From a virus (lineage: Duplodnaviria > Heunggongvirae > Uroviricota > Caudoviricetes): a stretch of DNA of 32,403 nucleotides. Shown in pieces: positions 1,882 to 16,584 of this stretch; the stretch's first letter is position 1; each line of letters opens with the position of its first letter. Both the position numbers and the translations under genes were made by a program. The stretch is taken from the IMG/VR virus record IMGVR_UViG_2675903336_000004; one strand, given 5' to 3'. The notes beneath the pieces are model-generated. The model was not told the origin of the DNA and did not search any database. It saw only the letters and a program-made list of their open reading frames with translations.

Positions 1882-4901
<3,020 letters not shown>

Positions 4902-4978
4902 AACCCTTGCTGCGTCTGGAATGTCGTTTTCCATGCTTTTGATGACCGTTCATCACCCTTCCAGTTTTTCGCGGTTTT

Positions 4979-5031
4979 GTGTATTGCAATGTGTATTGCA
5001 AATTGGCGATCGGGATGGGTGTGTATTGCAA
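4979..5031 (+). repeat. integrase arm-type direct repeats GTGTATTGCAA x3 (attL arm, upstream of int)
   Basis: Exact 11-mers at 4979-4989, 4991-5001 and 5021-5031. Two more copies in the same orientation sit at 15645-15667, just inside attR. Confidence 0.7.
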
Positions 5032-5049
5032 ATCTCTTGAGGGCTTTTA

Positions 5050-6291
5050 ATGGCTATTGAAAACAAACTCAGTGACAAACTGTTAAAGAGTCTTGTCGGA
5101 AAACGGCAGGACAAACAAAAAACAATAGCGGATGGGCGCGGGTTGTCTGTGCGTGTAAGCATGGTTGGGGGGATCAGCTTTGTTTTTTACTATCGTCTTG
5201 GTGGCAGGGAATCCCCTCCGGTATGGCTTACACTTGGTCGCTATCCTGACATGTCTCTTGCAACGGCCAGGCGCATGCGTGATCAGTGCCGTGAATGGCT
5301 GGCTGAAAATCTGGACCCCCGCAGGCAAATAAAACTTGCTGCCGAAAAAACTATGCAACCAGTGACCGTAAGGGATGCGCTGTTTTACTGGTACGACAAT
5401 CACGCCACAACAGCCAGAAAAGAGCATGAATATTTAATAAAACGATTTGAAAAGCATATCTTCCCCTATATCGGTGATATGGCTATAGAACAGTGCAAAT
5501 TACACACATGGCTTACCGTCTTTGACAGGATCAAAAAAAATGCGCCTGTTATGTCTGGTGCAATTTTTCTTGATATCAAACAGGCGTTGCGTTTTTGTCG
5601 CGTCAGGCAATACATCGCGTGCGATCCCTTTGGAGATATTAACGTAAGTTATGTCGGGCGCTCATCCGGTATAAGGGATCGCGTTCTTAATATCAATGAA
5701 ACCGCTGATGTATGGTCTTATGCTTACGGTAATAATTTGCTAACTCTGTCATCAATATATAACCGAAGAATAATGGTTATCTGCCTGGTGTTTGGTTGCC
5801 GACAGCAGGAGGCGAGGCTATCCACCTGGGACGAATGGGATTTAAAAAACTGGGTATGGACAGTCCCAAAAGAGCACAGCAAAAACAAGGAGGCTATAGT
5901 AAGGCCTGTTCCTGACGGAATAAAACAATGGATCGTTAATCTTTACGCAGAAACAAAAAATCGCGGTTATGTTGTCGGTTGTGCTTTGCAAAGGGCGACA
6001 ATAACAGGGGCTGCAAACAGAATATGCAGGCGTCTTGGTCATGATACTAATGGCTTGTGGTGCATACATGATTTCAGGCGCACATTTTCCACTACGCTTA
6101 ATGATATGGGGGCGGATCCTTATATTGTCGAACTTCTTTTAGGTCATAAAGTGAAAGGGGTTGCTGGTGTTTACAATAAAAGCAGGCATATAAAGAAAAA
6201 ACTTGAGGTGCTTAATATGTGGGTTAATTACCTTAATACGATAGCAGGATTTAACAACAACGTTATCGAGCTTAATAAAGAGGTGGTGTGA
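5050..6291 (+). CDS. int: tyrosine-type site-specific integrase (P4-like family)
   Basis: 413-aa ORF with the C-terminal catalytic signature HDFRRTFSTTLNDMGADPYIVELLLGH...VYNKS (His-x-x-Arg and Tyr). Located immediately inside attL, preceded by the arm repeats. Confidence 0.9.
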   Translation: MAIENKLSDKLLKSLVGKRQDKQKTIADGRGLSVRVSMVGGISFVFYYRLGGRESPPVWLTLGRYPDMSLATARRMRDQCREWLAENLDPRRQIKLAAEKTMQPVTVRDALFYWYDNHATTARKEHEYLIKRFEKHIFPYIGDMAIEQCKLHTWLTVFDRIKKNAPVMSGAIFLDIKQALRFCRVRQYIACDPFGDINVSYVGRSSGIRDRVLNINETADVWSYAYGNNLLTLSSIYNRRIMVICLVFGCRQQEARLSTWDEWDLKNWVWTVPKEHSKNKEAIVRPVPDGIKQWIVNLYAETKNRGYVVGCALQRATITGAANRICRRLGHDTNGLWCIHDFRRTFSTTLNDMGADPYIVELLLGHKVKGVAGVYNKSRHIKKKLEVLNMWVNYLNTIAGFNNNVIELNKEVV

Positions 6292-6292
6292 T

Positions 6293-6550
6293 ATGACAAT
6301 TTATTCTCTTGTTGATGAAAACGATTTGCGCACAATGAAGGACATTGATCGGTTCATTCGTGAAAAAGAGTGCATAGCACTTACCACGCTGGCAAACTCA
6401 ACACGCTGGAAAATGGAGCAGGCAGGTAAATTCCCGCGACGTATCAAGATCGGTGAACGTGCTGCAGGGTATCGACTTTCAGAGGTTCAGGCATGGATCC
6501 GTGGTGAGTGGCATCCTGGATGGAAACCTGGAAAAACAAAACAGCAATAA
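6293..6550 (+). CDS. alpA: AlpA-family transcriptional regulator / putative excisionase
   Basis: 85-aa ORF directly downstream of int. The segment IREKECIALTTLANSTRWKMEQAGKFPRRIKIGERAAGYRLSEVQAWI fits the AlpA/Xis-type HTH pattern. Confidence 0.8.
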   Translation: MTIYSLVDENDLRTMKDIDRFIREKECIALTTLANSTRWKMEQAGKFPRRIKIGERAAGYRLSEVQAWIRGEWHPGWKPGKTKQQ

Positions 6551-6563
6551 CCAGTAAATAATG

Positions 6564-6586
6564 CCCCTCATCACGAGGGGTTTTTT
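6564..6586 (+). terminator. rho-independent terminator after alpA
   Basis: Hairpin CCCCTC-atcac-GAGGGG followed by TTTTTT. Confidence 0.75.
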
Positions 6587-6606
6587 GTCTATAAGGTAAA
6601 AACGCG

Positions 6607-7185
6607 ATGAATAAAAATATTGCCGTGACGGGCAAGGGGTACGCTCGTCCAGTGAAAAAATTCTGCGATATTCGTGATCTCGTCGTTCTGCGCTTTGATA
6701 GTGTGAACGTTCGTGTGGTGTATCTGAACGGCGATCCGTGGTTTGTTGCAAAAGATGTTTGTGCTGCGCTGGAACTAACCAATTCGCGTACGGCGTTGCA
6801 GATGCTTGATGATGATGAAAAGGGAGTAAATTTAACTTACACCCCAGGAGGAAATCAGAATATGAGAATTATCTCTGAGTCAGGTTTCTACAAACTAATA
6901 GCCCGCAGCCGCAAAGCAACGACGCCTGGCACATTTGCTCATCGTTTCAGTAACTGGGTATTCAGAAATGTGATACCAGGTATCAGAAAAACGGGGACTT
7001 ATGGTATCCCGTGGGGTGCATTACAGGATTTTTCCCGCCGTAAAGAGCAATATCAAATAAGTGCCAGCGAGAAGGGGAGGGAGCTACAGGCATGTAAGCG
7101 CAAAAAGCGTGAGCTGGAGGAAGAAGAAAAAACGCTGATACGTGAATATCAGCCTGAGTTTTACTTTGGTAACCGCATTCAGTGA
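6607..7185 (+). CDS. Bro-N domain protein (antirepressor-like)
   Basis: 192-aa ORF. The segment DPWFVAKDVCAALELTNSRTALQMLDDDEKG...ISESGFYKLIARSRKATTPGTFAHRFSNWVFRNVIPGIRKTGTY matches the Bro-N/KilA-N type domain, with a charged coiled-coil-like C-terminus. Confidence 0.65.
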   Translation: MNKNIAVTGKGYARPVKKFCDIRDLVVLRFDSVNVRVVYLNGDPWFVAKDVCAALELTNSRTALQMLDDDEKGVNLTYTPGGNQNMRIISESGFYKLIARSRKATTPGTFAHRFSNWVFRNVIPGIRKTGTYGIPWGALQDFSRRKEQYQISASEKGRELQACKRKKRELEEEEKTLIREYQPEFYFGNRIQ

Positions 7186-7215
7186 CAAAACAAAGGCGAC
7201 CGCAAAAGGGTCGCC
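7186..7215 (-). terminator. putative rho-independent terminator of the leftward operon (possibly bidirectional)
   Basis: Hairpin GGCGACC-gcaaaag-GGTCGCC at 7195-7215, preceded on the + strand by aaaacaaa, which reads as a T-run after the stem on the - strand. Confidence 0.5.
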
Positions 7216-7281
7216 AGTGGGAACAAGGGAAAACAAAAGCATCACCAACAATGCCACATTTGCGGCTGGTGGGCAATGTGA

Positions 7282-7461
7282 TCAGTCAGATTTGGTTCGT
7301 TCCAAGGTTTGCAACGAGAGCTTTTTCCTGTGCTCTTTAAGGAATTTCTCAAGAGCAAACGAACAAGGTGCGAATCTTTCTGATTCATGTTCATGCGCTA
7401 TATTTTTGCGTCGTCTCTTACGAGTTGGTGATGGTGTTTTGGTTGATTCTGTGTCGCTCAT
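7282..7461 (-). CDS. small basic hypothetical protein (59 aa; below the ORF-track threshold)
   Basis: Manual translation of the reverse strand gives MSDTESTKTPSPTRKRRRKNIAHEHESERFAPCSFALEKFLKEHRKKLSLQTLERTKSD. It has an AGGA-containing RBS about 7 nt upstream and lies between orf101 and the terminator on the same strand. Confidence 0.35.
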   Translation of the reverse strand: MSDTESTKTPSPTRKRRRKNIAHEHESERFAPCSFALEKFLKEHRKKLSLQTLERTKSD

Positions 7462-7518
7462 GGTGCTGTCCTGTAAAGCAATGCGCCTGCGTTCCTCAAA
7501 CTATGGCGCTGATATTGG

Positions 7519-7824
7519 CTATTCATGCTCTTTGACCTTGCGTCGCTGGAGTTCTTCACGCGCGACGGTGACGAGTTGCCCGATCTCCTCGGCTGCTTTG
7601 ATGCCGATTTGTTCGACCTTAGCCAGGGCATCCAGTGACGACACAAGGGGATTTTCTCCGCTGCCTTCTGCTTGGCGGCGGGCTATTTCTCCGCGCATGG
7701 CGGTTACGATAAATCCGGCATTGCTTTCACCGTCCAGCTTAACGGATTCCATCCCTTGCATAACATCTAGTGGGACTCTGACAGTTGTCAGTTGTGATTT
7801 TGCGTTTTTGTTAGCCGTTGCCAT
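7519..7824 (-). CDS. putative transcriptional regulator (101 aa), divergent from the island early operon
   Basis: Complete ORF with an AGGAG RBS 8 nt upstream. It is transcribed away from the operator-containing intergenic region, and its position mirrors satellite/phage repressor genes. Fold assignment is tentative. Confidence 0.45.
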   Translation of the reverse strand: MATANKNAKSQLTTVRVPLDVMQGMESVKLDGESNAGFIVTAMRGEIARRQAEGSGENPLVSSLDALAKVEQIGIKAAEEIGQLVTVAREELQRRKVKEHE

Positions 7825-7885
7825 TTCTGAAACTCCTAATCATCGGTGTGTTTCAGTATACACAAAAAAAGAAATACAAAAAGCC

Positions 7886-7923
7886 TTGACGTGTGTTTCA
7901 TGCGCTCATAACATGAAACACAC
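7886..7923 (+). promoter_or_regulatory. rightward promoter (TTGACG, 17 bp, TAACAT) overlapped by a 12-bp perfect inverted-repeat operator
   Basis: GTGTGTTTCATG (7891-7902), 9-bp spacer, CATGAAACACAC (7912-7923). A third half-site GTGTGTTTCA is at 7846-7855. The -35 TTGACG is at 7886-7891 and the -10 TAACAT at 7909-7914. Confidence 0.6.
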
Positions 7924-8014
7924 CGAAAGGATTGTTGAAATACAAAGAGCAACGCCCCGCAGTGCTGGGAACACATACGGGGCGTCTAACCAACAACGTA
8001 AACTAGGAGCCGTT

Positions 8015-8212
8015 ATGGTTGCTGTAAATCATATACCACACCTTGTACACACACAAACGGCCTTTGTGTGGCGTTTTCTGGCACTGAGTGCCGGAGAATC
8101 TCAAATCATCCACGTAACCGCCTGGACGGAACGCGAAGCGCGTAGCCGTTGCCCGTCCGGTTGTGTTGCTGTATTCGCTGCAAAAATCCGCCAGGGAGTG
8201 AGTCATGCTTAA
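8015..8212 (+). CDS. small protein (65 aa), possibly Icd-like cell-division-inhibitor family
   Basis: ATG at 8015 with an AGGAG RBS 5 nt upstream; it shares frame and stop with the tail of the spurious long ORF 7142..8212. First gene after the operator-controlled promoter. Family assignment is from memory of a VWRFLAL-type motif and is tentative. Confidence 0.4.
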   Translation: MVAVNHIPHLVHTQTAFVWRFLALSAGESQIIHVTAWTEREARSRCPSGCVAVFAAKIRQGVSHA

Positions 8213-8390
8213 AACCTTCCGTGTATTTGCCCGAGCTGTTAACCCAATAGGCCACACAATTGGTATCGCTCAGAATGTGAAGGCTGTTAATGTTCAGACG
8301 GCTATTGCTGCGGTGAGAAGCGAATCATCAGAATATGGCTTATCACAAGTCATTATTTCAGCAGTGTATGAATTAAAAGAGGTGCATTAA
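8205..8390 (+). CDS. hypothetical protein (61 aa)
   Basis: Complete ORF whose start overlaps the stop of the preceding gene, indicating a translationally coupled operon. Confidence 0.4.
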   Translation: MLKTFRVFARAVNPIGHTIGIAQNVKAVNVQTAIAAVRSESSEYGLSQVIISAVYELKEVH

Positions 8391-8581
8391 TGCAGGAAAT
8401 TACATTACACGAAGCCGCTGAACGTGCGCACCAGACAGAAATTATTTGCCGCCTTCTTGAGGTATACCCGAACAAAATTACAGATGCTGATATATCCGCA
8501 CTGGCGAGCCTACTGGCGCGTCTTTCGGGAAGTGTCGCTAGTTTTTTGATTGAGGAAGAAAGTAAGCTGGTGGGGGATTAA
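8390..8581 (+). CDS. hypothetical protein (63 aa)
   Basis: Complete ORF with a TAATG stop/start overlap with the previous ORF. Confidence 0.4.
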   Translation: MQEITLHEAAERAHQTEIICRLLEVYPNKITDADISALASLLARLSGSVASFLIEEESKLVGD

Positions 8582-8803
8582 ATGAATACAGAACGGGAAG
8601 TCTTTTTTAAATTGTTAGCATGTGCAGAAAGTTCATTAACTTTAAATAATTCAGCAAAAGCAATATTAAATATGTGGCTTGATTGCATAAATGACAATGA
8701 AGATGCAAATATTGCTTATGGCCTGTTGTCACTTATTGATGAATCAGCAGAAAAACTCAATGACGCAATAAATAGTGCCCTGCTATCAAATAAGTCGAGT
8801 TAA
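8582..8803 (+). CDS. hypothetical protein (73 aa, AT-rich)
   Basis: Complete ORF abutting the previous stop. Codon composition is AT-rich. Confidence 0.4.
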   Translation: MNTEREVFFKLLACAESSLTLNNSAKAILNMWLDCINDNEDANIAYGLLSLIDESAEKLNDAINSALLSNKSS

Positions 8804-8820
8804 GTCGAGGAATAAATAAT

Positions 8821-9120
8821 ATGGAAATGAAAAATTCTGGCTTTATTGCCAGCGGCCCCGCTCGACCTGAATTTATGAACGGCGATATTTACCGCGATAA
8901 ATACGGCGGCACGGTAACGATTAAAGGCGTGGCAGAACGGCGCATCACTTACCGCCGTGAGGGGTATAGCTATGACTGCGTGATGCCTGTTTATCAGTTC
9001 CGGCGTGATTTTTCCCTGGTATATGCCGCACCCCGCAGTAAGCCCATCAGCAGGGAAAAAGCGTGGGGAAATATCCAGAAAATGAAAACCATGATTAACG
9101 GATTCAGAGGTAAAAAATGA
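8821..9120 (+). CDS. hypothetical protein (99 aa)
   Basis: Complete ORF with an ATGA overlap with the pri-rep start. Confidence 0.45.
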   Translation: MEMKNSGFIASGPARPEFMNGDIYRDKYGGTVTIKGVAERRITYRREGYSYDCVMPVYQFRRDFSLVYAAPRSKPISREKAWGNIQKMKTMINGFRGKK

Positions 9121-10871
9121 AACTGGCACCGAACGTAAAACAGCAGTCACGCGGCATAAAACACAAAGGAACAGAAGTCATTATTTTTGCGGGTAGTGAT
9201 GCCTGGGCACACGCGAAACAATGGCAGGAACATGATGCGCGTATGGCCGGAGATAATGAGCCTCCTGTGTGGCTTGGGGAGCAGCAGCTATCCGAACTGG
9301 ATAATCTGCAAATTGTGCCGGAAGGCCGAAAATCAGCACGCATATACAGGGCCGGATATCTTGCGCCTGTAATGATAAAGACGATTGGTCAGAAGCTGGC
9401 GGCAGCAGGCGTACAGGATGCAAATTTTTATCCTGAGGGTATGCACGGCCAGGAGGTGCAGAACTGGCGCGAATATCTGGCCCGTGAACGCCAGAATCTT
9501 TCTGATGGTCTGGTCATTGAGCTTCCGGTAAAGCAAAAGGCGCAACTTTCGCAGATGGCGGACAGTGAGCGCGCGCAGTTGCTTGCCGATCGCTTTGATG
9601 GCGTTTGCGTACATCCTGAAAGTGAAATCGTTCACGTATGGCGCGGCGGGGTATGGTGTCCGGTCAGCACAATGGAACTTAGCCGCGAAATGGTGGCGAT
9701 CTATTCAGAGCACAGGGCCACTTTCAGCAAGCGCGTAATCAATAACGCCGTGGAAGCGTTAAAAGTTATTGCCGAACCAATGGGCGAGCCGTCTGGCGAT
9801 TTGCTGCCGTTCGCCAATGGTGCGCTTGACCTGAAAACGGGGGAATTTTCCCCGCACACGCCGGAGAACTGGATCACCACGCACAACGGCATTGAGTACA
9901 CGCCACCAGCACCAGGGGAGAACATCCGCGATAACGCGCCAAACTTTCATAAATGGCTTGAGCACGCAGCCGGAAAAGACCCGCGCAAGATGATGCGTAT
10001 ATGTGCCGCGCTGTACATGATTATGGCGAACCGGTACGACTGGCAGATGTTTATTGAGGCCACCGGAGACGGCGGGAGCGGTAAAAGTACATTCACACAC
10101 ATAGCCAGCCTTCTGGCAGGGAAACAGAACACGGTAAGCGCTGAAATGACATCGCTTGATGATGCTGGTGGACGTGCGCAGGTTGTCGGGAGTCGTCTTA
10201 TCGTCCTGGCTGACCAGCCGAAATATACAGGCGAAGGAACGGGCATCAAGAAAATCACAGGCGGCGACCCCGTGGAAATTAACCCGAAATATGAAAAGCG
10301 TTTCACGGCGGTAATCAGGGCGGTGGTGCTGGCGACCAACAACAACCCGATGATATTCACCGAACGGGCCGGAGGTGTGGCACGTCGTCGCGTGATTTTC
10401 CGTTTCGACAATATCGTCAGTGAGGCCGAAAAAGACAGGGAGCTACCGGAAAAGATTGCGGCTGAAATCCCCGTTATTATCCGCCGATTGCTGGCGAACT
10501 TTACCGACCCTGAGAAGGCACGGGCTTTACTACTGGAACAGCGTGACGGTGATGAAGCACTGGCAATAAAGCAACAGACGGATCCGGTTATTGAGTTTTG
10601 CCAGTTCCTGAATTTTCTGGAGGAAGCGCGCGGCCTGATGATGGGTGGCGGTGGTGATTCAGTGAAGTACACGACCAGGAACAGCCTTTACCGCGTCTAT
10701 CTGGCGTTTATGGCATACGCGGGCAGGAGCAAACCGCTAAACGTGGCTGAGTTCAGCAAGGCCATGAAGCCAGCGGCGAAAGTTTACGGGCATGAATATA
10801 TTACGCGAAAAGTTAAGGGAGTAACGCAGACCAACGCAATTACAACAGACGATTGCGACGCGTTTTTATAA
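9117..10871 (+). CDS. primase/helicase replication initiator (pri-rep; P4-alpha/D5-like NTPase)
   Basis: 584-aa ORF with Walker A GDGGSGKST and a Walker B-like RLIVLADQP. Size, domain order and position (upstream of an iteron array) are as in PICI pri-rep genes. Confidence 0.85.
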   Translation: MKLAPNVKQQSRGIKHKGTEVIIFAGSDAWAHAKQWQEHDARMAGDNEPPVWLGEQQLSELDNLQIVPEGRKSARIYRAGYLAPVMIKTIGQKLAAAGVQDANFYPEGMHGQEVQNWREYLARERQNLSDGLVIELPVKQKAQLSQMADSERAQLLADRFDGVCVHPESEIVHVWRGGVWCPVSTMELSREMVAIYSEHRATFSKRVINNAVEALKVIAEPMGEPSGDLLPFANGALDLKTGEFSPHTPENWITTHNGIEYTPPAPGENIRDNAPNFHKWLEHAAGKDPRKMMRICAALYMIMANRYDWQMFIEATGDGGSGKSTFTHIASLLAGKQNTVSAEMTSLDDAGGRAQVVGSRLIVLADQPKYTGEGTGIKKITGGDPVEINPKYEKRFTAVIRAVVLATNNNPMIFTERAGGVARRRVIFRFDNIVSEAEKDRELPEKIAAEIPVIIRRLLANFTDPEKARALLLEQRDGDEALAIKQQTDPVIEFCQFLNFLEEARGLMMGGGGDSVKYTTRNSLYRVYLAFMAYAGRSKPLNVAEFSKAMKPAAKVYGHEYITRKVKGVTQTNAITTDDCDAFL

Positions 10872-10886
10872 TTTTTTGTAAAAGCC

Positions 10887-11105
10887 ATCTACCCCATCTA
10901 CCTGAACAAAATAAACGCATATTATTCAACATGATAAGTGGGTATAGGGCTAGGTAGAAGGCTAATAAAAGCTCTCTACCTCTTCTACCTGATTTTATCA
11001 GTTTCAGGTAGCAGGGTAGACGGCAGGTAGAGGAGTCAAAAAGCTATCTACCCGCTGAAAGCCGCGCCATTACTGACATGATGAGCATTCGGGTAGATGG
11101 GTAGA
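10887..11105. repeat. iteron array / putative replication origin (GGTAGA/TCTACC motifs, about 12 copies in both orientations)
   Basis: ATCTACC at 10887 and 10896; GGTAGA at 10953; TCTACC at 10975 and 10984; GGTAG(A) at 11007, 11015 and 11026; ATCTACC at 11046; GGTAGA at 11092 and 11100. Lies immediately 3' of pri-rep. Confidence 0.65.
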
Positions 11106-11218
11106 GGGGGGGAGGCACAACTAAAAACTTTTTAAACGAGGGGGGGTGAAAATAAATGCGCATACATAAAAATCACTTAACAAACATGCCAGCCGAAAAC
11201 ATGAATCAGGGGCGACAA

Positions 11219-11470
11219 ATGACCAAAATTCGCAGAGACAGAACACAGGCAAAATATAAAGCGTTAGACATGACAGAGCTTTCCTTAAAGGTGGCAATCA
11301 AAGCGATAGACCACCACACACGGGCAGGATACGCGAAGGAACATCCCGACCTGATAAGCGCATTCATGACCACAGCAGCGGCAAACTTTGCCACGCTGAC
11401 AGAACGGGAGATTGCCGAAGCGGAACAGGTGACAACCATCAATGTTAAAACCGGAGAGCAGACAGCATGA
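11219..11470 (+). CDS. hypothetical protein (83 aa from the ATG at 11219; track ORF begins at 11156)
   Basis: ATG at 11219 has an AGGGG RBS 6 nt upstream. Stop overlaps the ssb start (ATGA). Confidence 0.45.
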   Translation: MTKIRRDRTQAKYKALDMTELSLKVAIKAIDHHTRAGYAKEHPDLISAFMTTAAANFATLTEREIAEAEQVTTINVKTGEQTA

Positions 11471-11889
11471 CAGCACAGATAGCGGCTTACGGGCGGCTGG
11501 TGGCTGACCCGCAGTTAAAGACCACCAGCAAAGGGACACAAATGGCGATGGCGAGTATGGCGGTTCCCCTGCCGTGCAGCCAGGCAGATGACGGAACGGC
11601 GACGATGTGGTTATCCGTCCTGGCGTTTGGCAGACAGGCCGACGCACTGGCAAAACACCACAAAGGCGAACTGGTGAGCGTGGCGGGTAACATGCAGGTA
11701 AGCCAGTGGACAGGCCAGAACGGCGAAACGCGGCGGGGCTGGCAGGTTATCGCAGACAGCGTAATCAGTGCGCGAACGGCGCGACCGGGCGGCAAAAAAG
11801 GCCAGCAGGGGCAGGCCACTGACGCACTGAACAGGGCAAAACAACAGTCGGGGAATGATGATCCGTACGGCGATAATATACCGTTTTAA
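11467..11889 (+). CDS. ssb: single-stranded DNA-binding protein
   Basis: 140-aa ORF with an OB-fold-like core (MWLSVLAFGRQAD...VSQWTGQNGETRRGWQVIADSV), a Gly/Gln-rich linker and an acidic tail ending DDPYGDNIPF, like the SSB C-terminal DDDIPF tail. Confidence 0.75.
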   Translation: MTAQIAAYGRLVADPQLKTTSKGTQMAMASMAVPLPCSQADDGTATMWLSVLAFGRQADALAKHHKGELVSVAGNMQVSQWTGQNGETRRGWQVIADSVISARTARPGGKKGQQGQATDALNRAKQQSGNDDPYGDNIPF

Positions 11890-12100
11890 ATTCTGCAAAC
11901 AAAAAGATGCCGGAAAAAAATAGATTTTCCGGCATGCTACATAAATCCCGACCAAAGGAAGTAAATACATTAACACGAATTATCAGCACTGAAGTTGTTA
12001 CGGCATATTTTATACAACATTGCACTTGGTTGCATGTATTCGCATAGCAGACATCGGTAATAGAATATATTCACAATTATTTGTAATGAATGTAAAGAGG

Positions 12101-13147
12101 ATGAGTATGGTTGATTTATATTCGCCTACACAGCTTGTGCAGGTGGCTAATGCTGAAGATGTGCAAAAAAAATTAAATGCGTTGTTTACCAGTTTGTTTT
12201 TCACTCGCTCGGTAATGTTTGAATCGAGAGACATTATTCTTGATACGATCGACGATCCAAATATCCCGATCGCGGCGTTTTGCTCTCCTATGGTGGGCAG
12301 TAAAGTTTCACGAGATGAGGGATACGAATCAAAAACAATTCGTCCAGGTTATATGAAGCCGAAAAGCAGCATTGATCCAAATAAGTTAGCTGTGCGCCCT
12401 GCTGGTGTGTCACCTGAGCAATACAATGCTTTTGGGGCGCGTAATATTAAAGTTAAACAGGCGATTGTAAATCAGGCTAAAGCTATTCGTGCACGTATTG
12501 AATGGCTTGCTGTTCAGGCAATCACAACGGGGAAAAATATCATTGAGGGCGATGGTATTGAACGTTATGAGCTGGACTGGAATATAAAACCACAAAATAT
12601 CATCACTCAGTCTGGCGGTACTGAGTGGTCAGGTAAGGATAAAGAAACTTTTGATCCAAATGATGATATTGAGAGCTACGCAGAATTTAGTGAGGGCGTC
12701 ACTAATATCATCATTATGGGTGGTAATGTATGGAAGAAATACCGTTCATTCAGAGCGATAAAAGAGGCTTTGGATACCCGTCGTGGTTCTAATTCCGAAC
12801 TGGAAACGGCCCTTAAAGACCTTGGTGATTCGGTGAGTTTTAAAGGGTATATGGGCGATGTTGCGATTGTTGTTTACAGCGGGCGTTATACCGACGAGGA
12901 CGGAACAGAAAAACATTTCCTTGATCCTGATTTGATGGTGCTTGGCAATACGGCTCTTCAGGGGATTGTCGCCTATGGCGGTATTCAGGATCCGGAGCTA
13001 ATCCGAATGGGGCTGACTAAAGCCGAACTTGCACCGAAAAACTATATTGTGCCTGGTGATCCGGCTATTGAATATGTGCAGACACATTCAGCACCACAGC
13101 CAATACCGGCCCGCATCAATCGTTTTGTTACCGTTCGCATTGGCTAA
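12101..13147 (+). CDS. lambda gpE-like major capsid protein paralog (island-encoded)
   Basis: Alignable by eye along its length to the helper gpE in this window (18230..19255), e.g. ITQSGGTEWSGKDKETFDPNDDIESYA vs ITQSGVTEWSKRDKSTYDPTDDIEAYA, and TRRGSNSELETALKDLG...YMGDVAIVVYSG vs TRRGSHSELETAVKDLG...MYGDVAIVVYSG. Clearly diverged. An alternative start at 12107 has better RBS spacing. Confidence 0.8.
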   Translation: MSMVDLYSPTQLVQVANAEDVQKKLNALFTSLFFTRSVMFESRDIILDTIDDPNIPIAAFCSPMVGSKVSRDEGYESKTIRPGYMKPKSSIDPNKLAVRPAGVSPEQYNAFGARNIKVKQAIVNQAKAIRARIEWLAVQAITTGKNIIEGDGIERYELDWNIKPQNIITQSGGTEWSGKDKETFDPNDDIESYAEFSEGVTNIIIMGGNVWKKYRSFRAIKEALDTRRGSNSELETALKDLGDSVSFKGYMGDVAIVVYSGRYTDEDGTEKHFLDPDLMVLGNTALQGIVAYGGIQDPELIRMGLTKAELAPKNYIVPGDPAIEYVQTHSAPQPIPARINRFVTVRIG

Positions 13148-13156
13148 GGGGGAGCA

Positions 13157-13498
13157 ATGGCTACTCATTACACTGAACTCATGGCTGGCACTGAAGCACT
13201 GGTGACTACGCTGGGGATATTTTCAGCTAATAAAGGGGTAATTCCTGCATTTACGCCACTGATGCAGGAAGATGCAACAGGTGCACTGGTGGTATGGGAT
13301 GGTTCGAGCGTAGGTAAAGCGGTTTATGTTTCCGCTGTACAAATCGACACAGCGAAAAAAACACAGGCACAGGTTTATAAGACAGGTGTTTTAAATGTTG
13401 ATGCTCTGAACTGGCCTGAGTCTGTAAAAGAACTGTCGGCAAAGGTTGCCGCGTTTGTTGGCTCAGGTATTTCTGTTCAGCCGCTGGCTCGTGTGTAA
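13157..13498 (+). CDS. lambda gpD-like head decoration protein paralog (island-encoded)
   Basis: 113-aa ORF with a strong RBS (AAGGGGGAG). Shares the motifs TPLM, WDG, YKxG and WPE with the helper gpD (17842..18174) at equivalent spacing. Gene order is E-like then D-like, the reverse of lambda. Confidence 0.7.
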   Translation: MATHYTELMAGTEALVTTLGIFSANKGVIPAFTPLMQEDATGALVVWDGSSVGKAVYVSAVQIDTAKKTQAQVYKTGVLNVDALNWPESVKELSAKVAAFVGSGISVQPLARV

Positions 13499-13509
13499 AG
13501 GGGGATACA

Positions 13510-13893
13510 ATGCAGAATCATTACAATGACCTTAAGCCAATTGCCGAAATGATGTATCCGGATCCAGCAGTAGAGGAATTAAAGGCTATTGCTGACAAAA
13601 TGCGTTTAAGTGAACGCCTTGTTGATATGAATCAGGTGATGGAACTTACTACCCTTAGCCGTCGCACATTGCTAAACCTTGAGGCTCGCGGAGAGTTCCC
13701 CGAACGCGTACAGGTTACGGAAGGGCGTAAGGCCTGGTATTTAAGTGAAGTGATCGACTGGATAAACAATATTCCTCGATCTTCTGAATATTGCCGCGTA
13801 CCTGTCCCAAAAAAGCCAGATGCGGCGCTATGCCTCAAGATTGAGCGTGTACGTCGCAATGCACGGGATGGTCGCTATAAGTTGATTGGTTGA
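13510..13893 (+). CDS. AlpA-like HTH DNA-binding protein (second AlpA paralog), directly upstream of the island cos
   Basis: 127-aa ORF with RBS AGGGGG. The central segment MELTTLSRRTLLNLEARGEFPERVQVTEGRKAWYLSEVIDWI fits the AlpA/MerR-like HTH pattern and is flanked by N- and C-terminal extensions. Confidence 0.6.
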   Translation: MQNHYNDLKPIAEMMYPDPAVEELKAIADKMRLSERLVDMNQVMELTTLSRRTLLNLEARGEFPERVQVTEGRKAWYLSEVIDWINNIPRSSEYCRVPVPKKPDAALCLKIERVRRNARDGRYKLIG

Positions 13894-13918
13894 TGAAATT
13901 AGGGCCCGTTCTGGCTGG

Positions 13919-13985
13919 CGGGTCCTTTCCGGCGATCCGGTAGGCTACGGGGCGGCGACCTCGCGGGTTTTCGCTATTTATGAGC
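13919..13985 (+). other. cos: island cos site (cosQ-like segment plus canonical lambda cosN GGGCGGCGACCT at 13950-13961)
   Basis: gggtcctttccggcgatccg...ctacgGGGCGGCGACCTcgcgggttttcgctatttatga matches the lambda cos core as recalled. Downstream sequence, where cosB would be, differs from the prophage cosB. Confidence 0.8.
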
Positions 13986-14094
13986 CTTTTTCGGGTGCTG
14001 GTGGTGGTTTTGTTGTTCGCTCTATCTCTATGAATAAAAAGGAAAAGATAAAGCCAATACACCAACCTGAAACATTACTTAAGTGGGGATATTG

Positions 14095-14637
14095 ATGAAA
14101 TCGCACCTGATGAACAAAAAAAACATGGCGCAAAGCTGCCGTGTAAGTGCGACAGCGTTCGACAAGTGGGGAGTGACTCCCGTTGAACGTAAAGGCCGCG
14201 AGGCGTTTTATGATGTTGCCAGCGTAATAGACAATCGGGTTAGCAATGCAATTAACCAGATTACAGACGACAAAGGCGAGATTGATGATGATGAACTCCT
14301 ACGAGTCAGGATCAGATTGCTGACAGCACAGGCAGAGGCGCAGGAGCTTAAAAACGAGCGCGAACGCGGCGACGTTATTGATACAGCGTTTTGTATATAC
14401 GTGCTTTCAAAATTGGCGAGTCAGATTTCTTCAATCATGGACAGCCTGCCGCTTGCCATGACAAGGAAGTTTCCCGACATGAAGCCGTCTATGCTGGATG
14501 GACTGAAAAAAGAAGTTATCAGAGCCTGTAACGCATGCGCAAAACTTGACGAAAACATACCGCTGATGCTGTCCGATTATCTGATGGAAACTGCCGGAAA
14601 CGTACCGGATAAGTTGCAGCCGAATAAAGATAAGTAA
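14095..14637 (+). CDS. Nu1-like terminase small subunit (island-encoded; diverged N-terminal DNA-binding domain)
   Basis: The C-terminal two-thirds align with helper Nu1 (LTAQAEAQELKNERERGDVIDTAFCIYVLSKLASQISSIMDSLPLAMTRKFPDM vs LTRAQADAQELKNARDSAEVVETAFCTFVLSRIAGEIASILDGIPLSVQRRFPEL). The N-terminal about 60 aa are diverged. ATG at 14095 has a GTGGGG RBS; the track ORF starts at GTG 14083. Confidence 0.85.
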   Translation: MKSHLMNKKNMAQSCRVSATAFDKWGVTPVERKGREAFYDVASVIDNRVSNAINQITDDKGEIDDDELLRVRIRLLTAQAEAQELKNERERGDVIDTAFCIYVLSKLASQISSIMDSLPLAMTRKFPDMKPSMLDGLKKEVIRACNACAKLDENIPLMLSDYLMETAGNVPDKLQPNKDK

Positions 14638-14648
14638 CGTAGTACGCT

Positions 14649-14930
14649 ATGACTGAATCCGAAATACTGCGATTAATCCGCCGTGCTTGTGGAATCAGCA
14701 AGCAGCATGACGAACAGGCCACGCAGCCGGACAGCGTGACCGCAGATAATTATGTGCGTGTAGTGGCTGAGGTGATGCGCCGTGACGGTATTGAGCTTAA
14801 CGGCGTGGATATGCGCAACATACGAACAAGAGTCCTTGAGTTGCTGGCATATCGTCGCCGTTCTCAACAACGGAGGGAGAGCGCGAAAAATACTTACCAG
14901 TGGAAGAAGCCGGAACGATTGCGGCGGTAA
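14649..14930 (+). CDS. hypothetical protein (93 aa, Arg-rich C-terminus)
   Basis: Complete ORF immediately downstream of the island terS. No recognisable motif. Confidence 0.4.
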   Translation: MTESEILRLIRRACGISKQHDEQATQPDSVTADNYVRVVAEVMRRDGIELNGVDMRNIRTRVLELLAYRRRSQQRRESAKNTYQWKKPERLRR

Positions 14931-14945
14931 CTTGCTGATATTCCC

Positions 14946-15156
14946 GATAACGCAAAATTGCGCTGGCTGACTTGTTGCATTGCAAAAAGTTAAGCAGGAA
15001 GGCACGGCCTGTAAGATGGGATGCAGTAAGTAGTTCAAGGCTACCTTGTGCTGGCACGCACAGTTAAGCCGTCGGTGCTGGATATCCCCCACTGGGGGAA
15101 AAGCTGGCTACATCCCTCACATCTGAGGACTGATAACGCGACATTGCGCTGGCTGG
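14946..15156 (+). repeat. pair of 24-bp direct repeats GATAACGC(A/G)A(A/C)ATTGCGCTGGCTG, each followed by a short palindrome
   Basis: Copies at 14946-14969 and 15133-15156 match at 22 of 24 positions. Palindromes CGCAAAATTGCG and GTGCAAAATTGCAC lie within or next to them. Confidence 0.6.
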
Positions 15157-15180
15157 CAAAGTGCAAAATTGCACGATGGC

Positions 15181-15342
15181 CTAACCCATTGATTATTTCG
15201 AAAACCTGCAATGCAGGAAATCGGGGAAGTAAGCCTAAGCTATTGATTGTTTCGAAAACCCCCATTGGGGGATGTCGGGAAAGTAAGACTAACCCATTGA
15301 TTCTTCCACAATCCTCAATTTGAGGAGGCCGGAACGTCTACA
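15181..15342 (+). repeat. three tandem 54-bp repeat units, each with a different perfect hairpin (covarying stems)
   Basis: Units start at 15181, 15235 and 15289, each with CTAA(C/G)C(C/T)ATTGATT. Hairpins are CCTGCA-a-TGCAGG (15205-15217), CCCCCA-ttg-GGGG (15259-15271, stem of 4-5 bp) and CCTCAA-t-TTGAGG (15313-15325). Related hairpins lie upstream at 15086-15098 and 15115-15128. Confidence 0.7.
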
Positions 15343-15644
15343 TAGCTGCATCGCCGTAATGATGATTCAGCCCACCAGCCAAATCAGCACAGCAACGACA
15401 GAATAGCCCGACACAGAAAAACCACGAATATGGGGTTTTTGTTATGACATGGTCATGATGACCACTCATACAAAACAGGTAAAGCCCACCAGCCTGATTA
15501 AAGGTTAACCGGAAAAAAGCCAGGTATCCAATCTCGATATGGGGATCCCTATATCGACATTAACGCCCACTAAAACTGTGCATATATGCATAGAAAAAGC
15601 ATCCACCAGCTTTATGACGGATGCCGCTCATCTTATAAATAATC

Positions 15645-15667
15645 GTGTATTGCAGTGTGTATTGCGA
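15645..15667 (+). repeat. integrase arm-type repeats (GTGTATTGCAG, GTGTATTGCGA) at the attR arm
   Basis: Two copies in the same orientation as the three attL copies, about 75 bp inside the attR core. Confidence 0.65.
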
Positions 15668-15739
15668 CTCCTTTAAACGATAGGTCTGAGCATTCGTAAT
15701 GTACTGTTTTTAAATTTTATTTTTTCCTGTCTTTTCATA

Positions 15740-15747
15740 AAGGCGAT
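15740..15747. repeat. attR core (AAGGCGAT), right copy of the direct repeat
   Basis: Identical 8-mer to 4842-4849. Lambda B coding sequence resumes immediately to its right. Confidence 0.7.
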
Positions 15748-16316
15748 GTATGCCGCCACCATTGAAAGTGAGCTGGATACGCAGTCAGCGATGGATTTTA
15801 TTCTGGGCGCGAACAGTAAGGAGCAGCGGGAAAGGCTGACGGGCTGGATTGGTGAAATTGCCGCGTATTACGCCGCAGCACCGGTCCGTCTGGGAGGCGC
15901 AAAAGTGCCGCACCTGATGCCGGGGGACTCACTGAACCTGCAGACGGCTCAGGACACGGATAACGGCTACTCCGTGTTTGAGCAGTCACTGTTGCGGTAT
16001 ATCGCTGCCGGGCTGGGTGTCTCGTATGAGCAACTTTCCCGGAATTACGCCCAGATGAGCTACTCCACGGCACGGGCCAGTGCGAACGAGTCGTGGGCGT
16101 ACTTTATGGGGCGGCGAAAATTCGTCGCATCCCGTCAGGCGAGCCAGATGTTTCTGTGCTGGCTGGAAGAGGCCATCGTTCGCCGCGTGGTGACGTTACC
16201 TTCAAAAGCGCGCTTCAGCTTTCAGGAAGCCCGCAGTGCCTGGGGGAACTGCGACTGGATAGGCTCCGGTCGTATGGCCATCGATGGTCTGAAAGAAGTT
16301 CAGGAAGCGGTGATGC
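15746..16316 (+). CDS. B: portal protein B, 3' fragment (from native Met276; truncated by masked gap at 16317)
   Basis: MYAATIESELDTQSAMDFILGANSKEQRERLTGWIGEIAAYYAAAPVRLGG... matches the lambda gpB C-terminal half. The ATG at 15746 overlaps the attR core. Confidence 0.9.
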
Positions 16317-16584
16317 NNNNNNNNNNNNNNNNNNNNNNNNNNNNNNNNNNNNNNNNNNNNNNNNNNNNNNNNNNNNNNNNNNNNNNNNNNNNNNNNNNNN
16401 NNNNNNNNNNNNNNNNNNNNNNNNNNNNNNNNNNNNNNNNNNNNNNNNNNNNNNNNNNNNNNNNNNNNNNNNNNNNNNNNNNNNNNNNNNNNNNNNNNNN
16501 NNNNNNNNNNNNNNNNNNNNNNNNNNNNNNNNNNNNNNNNNNNNNNNNNNNNNNNNNNNNNNNNNNNNNNNNNNNNNNNNNNNN

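Follow-up and report, generated by a model that had tools for sequence, protein, structure and literature searches.

A mirror-symmetric array of GGTAGA iterons behind the replicase gene is the probable replication origin of a prophage-embedded PICI

Introduction

Directly behind the replication gene of a small genomic island, about 220 bp of DNA is crowded with copies of a single six-base word in both orientations, which raises the question of whether the island begins its own replication there and, if so, which protein reads the repeats. The island is contained in the window, that is, the whole 32,403-bp stretch of viral DNA analyzed here, and the original prediction had taken the repeats for a putative replication origin in the arrangement usual for PICI-type satellites.

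In PICIs, the origin is the region immediately 3' of pri-rep, where sets of iterons flank an AT-rich tract (Fillol-Salom 2018, ISME J, PMC6092414). For the island EcCICFT073, a pri-rep-ori segment maintains a temperature-sensitive plasmid at the restrictive temperature, an ability that is lost on deletion of ori or of pri, and deletion of pri-rep lowers the transfer from ~1e5 to ~50 (PMC6092414). Here, we compare the array in the window with this and other systems, and examine how the repeat word, the layout of the sites, and the domains of the adjacent replicase vary among related islands.

Results

The island is a Gram-negative PICI embedded in a prophage

The repeats lie in an island of ~10.7 kb (about 5050–15700), the key genes of which are co-oriented. 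The array is preceded, in this order, by int (5050–6291), AlpA (6293–6550), the genes of a Bro-N protein, an Icd-like protein, and a DUF4222 protein, and the replicase gene (Pri), and is followed by orf83, ssb, genes of a lambda E-type capsid protein and a D-type decoration protein, a second AlpA-like gene, cosN, and a Nu1-like terS. On account of this gene set (int, AlpA, Pri, SSB, capsid/decoration, terS, and cosN), the island is a Gram-negative PICI. Moreover, int, alpA, and pri are co-oriented, the length is within 10–20 kb, the helper-related elements cos or terS are represented, and tail and lysis genes are absent; the PICI-type satellite assumed in the original prediction is thus borne out by gene content, co-orientation, and size. 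A P4-like satellite was considered and rejected, since no PHROG or Pfam match to sid, psu, or delta was found in the island, which instead carries lambda E/D-type capsid and decoration genes and a Nu1-like terS.

The island is inserted, co-oriented, in the portal gene of a DLP12-like lambdoid prophage, the two halves of which (4020–4853 and 15737–16519) are annotated as pseudogenes. The identical sequence is carried by E. coli strain Res13-Lact-PEA14-20 (NZ_CP062871), in which the island also splits the prophage portal gene. Such a "helper-embedded PICI" is a published configuration, with B:Phage_portal_2 sites among those described, and for 11capE, the sole helper-embedded PICI studied experimentally, replication after excision was ambiguous, with little clear signal (PMC10111431). 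In the relative L004, the island splits a prophage large-terminase gene. No tRNA was found at the island border, and a search of the island junctions for an att core repeat returned none, revealing only the putative arm-type repeats TGTGTATTGCAAAT, of which three copies are located just upstream of int (4978–5033) and one near the right junction (15656–15669); they are probably arm-type binding sites of the integrase.

Several other features of the island were noted in passing. The second AlpA-like gene (13510–13893; 127 aa; Pfam Phage_AlpA, 1.3e-8) separates the decoration gene from cos. At 13950–13961, directly upstream of terS (14083–14637) and 2.8 kb from the array, there is an exact lambda cosN, the flanks of which are also lambda-like. 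This site has the canonical lambda sequence GGGCGGCGACCT, differing in 5 of 12 positions from the prophage counterpart GGGCGGAAGGCG at ~1147–1158 upstream of nohD; therefore, the island may differ in packaging specificity from the prophage around it, or the latter may have a defective cos. Near the right end of the island (15181–15342), there are three tandem 54-bp repeats, each consisting of a conserved head of 26 nt, CTAACCCATTGATTATTTCGAAAACC, and a GC-rich hairpin that differs from repeat to repeat; in EcCICFT073 and L002, the repeat occurs only as weak single copies, and it gave no Rfam match.

GGTAGA hexamers are concentrated immediately downstream of the replicase gene

An exact search of the whole window returned 13 GGTAGA/TCTACC hexamers, 10 of which fall within 10888–11105 (starting at 10888, 10897, 10953, 10975, 10984, 11015, 11026, 11047, 11092, and 11100). 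By dinucleotide shuffles, 7.7 copies are expected per window and ~0.05 per 219 bp, and none of 200,000 random placements of 13 sites put 10 of them within 219 bp. The rest of the island contains no copy, and the other three are singletons in the prophage. Two degenerate copies with one mismatch each, GGTATA at 10941 and GGTAGC at 11007, are aligned with true sites in related arrays, and the "about a dozen" hexamers predicted for 10887–11105 is accurate when these are counted with the 10 exact ones.

With "+" denoting GGTAGA, the sites are ordered as −− (10888 and 10897), + (10953), −− (10975 and 10984), +++ (11007, 11015, and 11026), − (11047), and ++ (11092 and 11100), close neighbors being spaced 8–11 bp apart. 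The first hexamer is located 17 bp past the replicase stop codon (10871), and the array region is noncoding. The full spacer covers 10872–11218, for we preferred 11219 over the mechanically assigned 11156 as the start of the downstream ORF because the PHROG match spans residues 22–103 and because both PGAP annotation and conservation in relatives favor it. The prediction of closely spaced pairs in both orientations, in ~220 bp of noncoding DNA right after the replication gene, was confirmed in all these respects.

The array is mirror-symmetric, containing four mirrored pairs about a center at ~11002 (offset 131 from the stop codon). When sites were placed at random, the observed number of mirrored pairs was reached in no more than 5 of 300 trials for 17 of the 23 arrays so examined. 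The dyad center occupies 10990–11006, with ~11002 as the best mirror center and a short inverted repeat at 10982–10992/11004–11014. In the left arm, a distal pair on the − strand (10888–10902; TCTACC at 10888 and 10897, 9 bp apart), the position of which is kept in all GGTAGA-class arrays, is separated by a gap from the inverted site or sites on the + strand (10941–10958; degenerate GGTATA at 10941 and exact GGTAGA at 10953), and these are followed by a proximal pair on the − strand (10975–10989; TCTACC at 10975 and 10984). The right arm begins with a proximal triple on the + strand (11007–11031; GGTAGC at 11007 and GGTAGA at 11015 and 11026, with spacings of 8 and 11 bp), continues with a single inverted iteron on the − strand (11047–11052), and ends, beyond a second gap, with a distal pair on the + strand (11092–11105; GGTAGA at 11092 and 11100).

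The two gaps differ in composition. The left-arm gap (10903–10940), a candidate DNA-unwinding element with 26% GC, has the lowest GC content in 10400–11600 and a local minimum of duplex stability at 10908, and this tract matches the AT-rich region between the iteron sets of PICI origins (PMC6092414). The duplex stability of the AT-rich tracts of the array is at a minimum only locally; a uniquely unstable unwinding element was rejected, since less stable DNA exists elsewhere in the island. The right-arm gap (54% GC) contains a conserved non-iteron block of 26 bp, CTGAAAGCCGCGCCATTACTGACATG (11055–11080), which is kept in the EcCICFT073, Shigella, Raoultella, and Symbiopectobacterium arrays, whereas the other spacers diverge there. 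Its mirror image, the left-arm gap, is AT-rich and not conserved, and both gaps are AT-rich in TGTTCACC-class arrays and in P4 ori. Between the last iteron and orf83 lies a leader with a G-run and AT-rich DNA (11106–11218; GC 35–38% at 11120–11199).

A classical iteron plasmid origin of the pSC101/R6K/P1 type, for which we took direct repeats of ~17–22 bp together with DnaA boxes, IHF sites, and Dam sites as the criterion, was rejected: the words here are 6 bp long and stand in both orientations, and no DnaA box, IHF consensus, or GATC (Dam) site was found in 10860–11230. No Rfam family matched anywhere in the window at the gathering thresholds.

The upstream gene encodes a helicase with a P4 alpha-like origin-binding domain

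The replicase gene (9117–10871, + strand) encodes a 584-residue Pri-Rep protein composed of D5_N, an SF3 helicase (DUF5906, the C-terminal region of P4-family primases), and a C-terminal origin-binding domain (OBD). Pri gave Pfam matches to D5_N, DUF5906, and Pox_D5, and reached the cutoff of TIGR01613 (NCBIfam "phage/plasmid primase, P4 family"). Its residues 190–432 match 7OLA (E 4e-15), a 797-aa chain deposited as "DNA primase", which we take to be a SaPI primase-helicase. The OBD (residues 488–576; coding region 10578–10844, + strand), the presumed reader of the iterons, matches 1KA8, the solved origin-binding domain of P4 alpha (E 8e-6). By these matches, Pri is a D5_N/SF3-helicase/origin-binding protein of the P4 alpha family. 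A phage database search with the pri-ori segment gave weak P4 alpha matches only.

The gene had been predicted to encode a primase-helicase, of which the helicase part is supported by the SF3 match and the primase part is not: no primase catalytic domain was detected in Pri, and residues 1–150 (9117–9566) match no family. Pri begins at about residue 190 of alpha and is devoid of the N-terminal ~190 residues of alpha with the zinc finger. Full-length relatives of the GGTAGA class (Xenorhabdus and Symbiopectobacterium; L012 and L021) possess a zinc finger and, as TOPRIM motifs, TEGYATA and AGDNDW; the E. coli Pri starts after the zinc finger and after TEGYATA, the TOPRIM motif with the catalytic Glu, and has AGSDAW in place of AGDNDW. 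Because Pri contains no recognizable primase domain, it may be a helicase-initiator without primase activity, the host probably supplying the primers.

The array corresponds to the origin region of EcCICFT073

The Pri of the window is identical to the Pri-Rep of EcCICFT073 in 570 of 584 residues (98%), and the GGTAGA/TCTACC word, the orientation order, and the position 3' of pri-rep are all the same in EcCICFT073 as in the window. The EcCICFT073 sites are at offsets 17−, 26−, 72+, 94−, 105−, 114−, 145+, 156+, 178−, 224+, and 233+, making five mirrored pairs at 19/21, 30/32, 52/54, 98/100, and 107/109 bp from the center. The array DNA of the window is, however, only 83% identical to that of EcCICFT073: the "−" site at offset 94 is absent, a "+" site is shifted by 12 bp, and two sites are degenerate. 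GGTATA at 10941 aligns with the "+" site of other arrays, and GGTAGA at 10953 is specific to the window allele. The islands also differ in location, EcCICFT073 residing between roxA and phoQ in CFT073 and the window island inside the prophage portal gene. The origins of the S. aureus SaPIs are likewise found directly 3' of the initiator, with two iteron sets around an AT-rich region (PMC6092414); they differ in the iteron sequences and in the N-terminal domain of the initiator, the proteins being related only in the helicase core. In position and in its iteron sets, the window array is as described by Fillol-Salom 2018 (PMC6092414), which upholds the predicted likeness to the usual PICI origin.

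The replicase and the array are exchanged together

Among 5,426 complete genomes of E. coli, many islands were found to have the same flanking genes and a different middle. The common flanks of the swapped block are DUF4222 upstream and orf83-ssb downstream; orf83 (phrog_1231) and the gene of the single-stranded-DNA-binding protein (together 11219–11889, + strand) accompany each of the three replicase types on the downstream side. In the corresponding slot, L003 and L004 carry a divergent primase of 604 aa with a TGTTCACC/GGTGAACA array behind it, and L002 carries a RepA-family helicase with six AAGTGAG repeats behind it, which are all the copies in that 14-kb locus. No GGTAGA is present in the L003/L004 or L002 arrays, and no TGTTCACC is present in the window array, a single one-mismatch match being located at 11145, downstream of the last iteron.

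The window and L003 Pri proteins are 95% identical in residues 1–135, but only 34% in D5_N, 54% in the helicase, and 34% in the OBD. On the downstream side, the similarity to relatives with other replicases returns at ~11216, that is, at the start codon of orf83. From the drop in identity after residue 135 and the resumption of DNA similarity at the orf83 start, the exchangeable cassette consists of Pri from residue ~140 to the end and the whole spacer, including the leader. Since each replicase type in this slot comes with a word of its own, and since the word tracks the OBD (see below), the iterons appear to be specific to the cognate replicase allele.

The late modules differ considerably among islands with the same early/replication module (L001–L004 and L087). 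The window has the lambda E/D capsid and decoration genes with the Nu1-like terS; L002 and EcCICFT073 have capsid and decoration genes, L002 also having terS; L003 has an HK97 capsid, protease, portal, HNH, terS, and terL, like capsid-forming PICIs; and L004 has a ClpP-protease/capsid fusion.

The repeat word follows the origin-binding domain across species

To extend the comparison, 80 homologous loci, with one genome per species, were searched de novo for the commonest word in the 350 bp past the stop codon. The GGTAGA class comprises 16 of the 80 loci including the window, its genera and species being Shigella, Rosenbergiella, Xenorhabdus, Escherichia ruysiae, Symbiopectobacterium, Yersinia, Raoultella, and Pantoea, and the GGTGAACA class comprises 12. 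Other words, ATGAACAC, GGTATACA, GTAGACA, ACTGTCC, CAGTGAC, CCCTAC, and CAGTGC, are represented by 1–3 loci each. In 41 of the 80 loci, none of ten tested words reaches five copies in the 350 bp downstream, and the array-after-gene arrangement is therefore not universal in the protein family. These loci encode mostly full-length alpha-like proteins of ~810 aa in Xenorhabdus, Photorhabdus, and Proteus, and contain weak ATGTATA-type words in 3–5 copies; here, replication may begin at a different place, as in P4, or the sites used may be more degenerate.

Over the 80 loci, the OBD identity is 65% within and 42% between word classes, as compared with 72% and 60% for the helicase; the permutation test applied to this co-variation is a naive one that ignores phylogeny. 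Particularly informative are L007, L008, and L010, whose helicases are 70–72% identical to that of the window, as close as any, whereas their OBDs are only 31–33% identical and their words differ. Furthermore, 14 OBD positions are fixed differently between the GGTAGA and TGTTCACC classes. These comparisons indicate that the repeat word tracks the C-terminal OBD, more closely than it does any other domain, and not the helicase core.

Within the GGTAGA class, the hexamer columns of the alignments are mostly 82–94% identical to the window (62–94% overall), as against 37–56% for the spacers. Across genera, the difference amounts to 94% versus 42%, with Fisher p values down to 1e-14 (versus Xenorhabdus), a pattern that points to purifying selection on the hexamers. 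Moreover, the orientation order and the spacings are nearly the same in the GGTAGA, GGTGAACA, ATGAACAC, GGTATACA, and GTAGACA arrays, so that the word varies within a constant positional grammar.

The right arm has the site layout of the P4 origin

Phage P4 and the window share short iterons of 6–8 bp in two orientations, and the window Pri combines a P4-family helicase core with a 1KA8-like OBD. The right arm reproduces the six-iteron layout of P4 ori, in which three direct sites and one inverted site are followed, after ~44 bp, by two further direct sites. The triple (11007–11031) has the same pattern as the P4 ori sites 9310/9320/9331, the single inverted iteron at 11047 corresponds to site 9353, and the distal pair (11092 and 11100) corresponds to sites 9396/9406. 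The successive spacings are 8, 11, 21, 45, and 8 in the window, 10, 11, 22, 43, and 10 in P4 ori, and 10, 11, 21, and 44 in L003. The type I iteron of P4, TGTTCACC, occurs unchanged in the sister PICIs L003, L004, and L055, whereas the window uses GGTAGA. The word and the layout, and these features only, suggest a common descent of P4 ori and the PICI arm. Homology between the two beyond the iterons was rejected, the identity there being 46% and the gap alignment non-significant, and an equivalence of the left arm with the P4 crr unit was dropped, since only the first three sites correspond.

The arrangement as a whole differs, as P4 has two arrays (ori and crr) ~4.5 kb apart and the window has one compact, mirror-symmetric array. 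According to the annotation of NC_001609, the P4 array directly downstream of alpha is crr, with ori 4.5 kb away, and the window array, coming right after the replicase gene, is positioned like crr. Hence the most serious of the rival explanations is that the array is an auxiliary cis element like crr, acting as a replicase-binding enhancer, and that initiation takes place elsewhere, for example, in the leader (11106–11218) or at a distant site. We consider this unlikely. There is no second GGTAGA cluster, only the three prophage singletons remaining outside the array; the right arm has the layout of P4 ori and not that of a crr unit; and the cloned pri-ori segment of EcCICFT073 alone is enough for replication (PMC6092414).

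The array is also situated in the sole large gap among genes that all run in one direction, right before orf83 and ssb, where the repeats could be operators for a regulator of the orf83-ssb-capsid operon (Pri by autoregulation, AlpA, or a repressor) rather than an origin. Iteron-binding initiators often autoregulate too. Nevertheless, neither a sigma-70-like promoter nor an intrinsic terminator was found in 10600–11400, a change of replicase brings a change of repeats but not of AlpA, orf83, or ssb, with the word tracking the OBD, and ~12 sites in a mirror-symmetric 220-bp array are untypical of an operator. As a replacement for the origin, the operator reading is very improbable; a secondary regulatory role of the array besides that of the origin may exist. 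That the repeats are a packaging signal, namely, cosB-like sites for the small terminase subunit, is hardly credible and was rejected, for although the terS of the island is Nu1-like and Nu1 binds to repeated sites in lambda cosB, the exact lambda cosN at 13950 stands next to and upstream of the island terS, far from the array, and the repeats co-vary with the replicase and not with terS.

Discussion

The array at 10888–11105 is very probably the replication origin of the PICI, recognized by the island's own replicase encoded immediately upstream. This reading is drawn from the sequence evidence in combination: the clustering and position of the hexamers, the near-identity with EcCICFT073, the module swap, the co-variation of word and replicase, and the purifying selection on the sites, to which the match of the OBD to 1KA8, the P4 ori layout of the right arm, and the mirror symmetry can be added. 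The original prediction of a replication origin is supported on these grounds. The finding is correct and already known, since the same type of origin was tested experimentally in 2018 (PMC6092414). As the P4 array after alpha is crr, the actual start point may lie either within or beside the array.

An SF3 helicase with its own OBD reading short inverted words is also found in SV40, polyomaviruses, and papillomaviruses, in which words of 5–6 bp are arranged around a dyad with AT-rich DNA adjoining, and two hexamers assemble at these origins. The SV40 core contains 4 pentamers, as compared with ~12 sites over 220 bp in the window, and the likeness is a functional analogy only; at the window array, a double hexamer may assemble.

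From the homology with P4 alpha and from the co-variation, the initiation may be pictured as follows. After induction, the C-terminal winged-helix OBD of Pri would bind the GGTAGA hexamers, which form two mirror-image arms of ~6 sites each, with neighbors about one helical turn apart. The arms could then nucleate SF3-helicase hexamers, one per arm and in opposite orientations, and melting would start in the adjoining AT-rich tract, for which 10903–10940 is the best candidate. Presumably, the single strands are coated by the SSB of the island, and priming would be supplied by the host.

Tentatively, we propose a more general model, which is a possibility to be taken seriously rather than relied on. 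The array may consist of two six-site units of the P4-ori type in mirror symmetry, each for one helicase hexamer, and serve as a platform for the head-to-head loading of two SF3 hexamers; PICI origins and P4 ori may share one ancestral design, in which the word and the OBD are swapped as one cassette to produce at least eight specificity classes (in Enterobacterales and Aeromonas), while the positional grammar is kept fixed. Both this dyad and the classes of word/domain cassettes may be regarded as modest extensions of the known origin.

After induction, the origin would let the island amplify, and such amplification is the basis of the very high frequencies at which PICIs are transferred. For this family of elements, the results provide a rule of annotation, in that a dense array of a short word after a P4-family replicase gene marks the origin, and the repeat word would predict which replicase allele works with that origin. 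The matching of word and replicase bears on the compatibility of co-resident satellites and on PICI-based delivery vectors. Finally, a fixed grammar with interchangeable words represents a natural case of co-evolution between initiator and sites, extending a known principle without introducing a new one.
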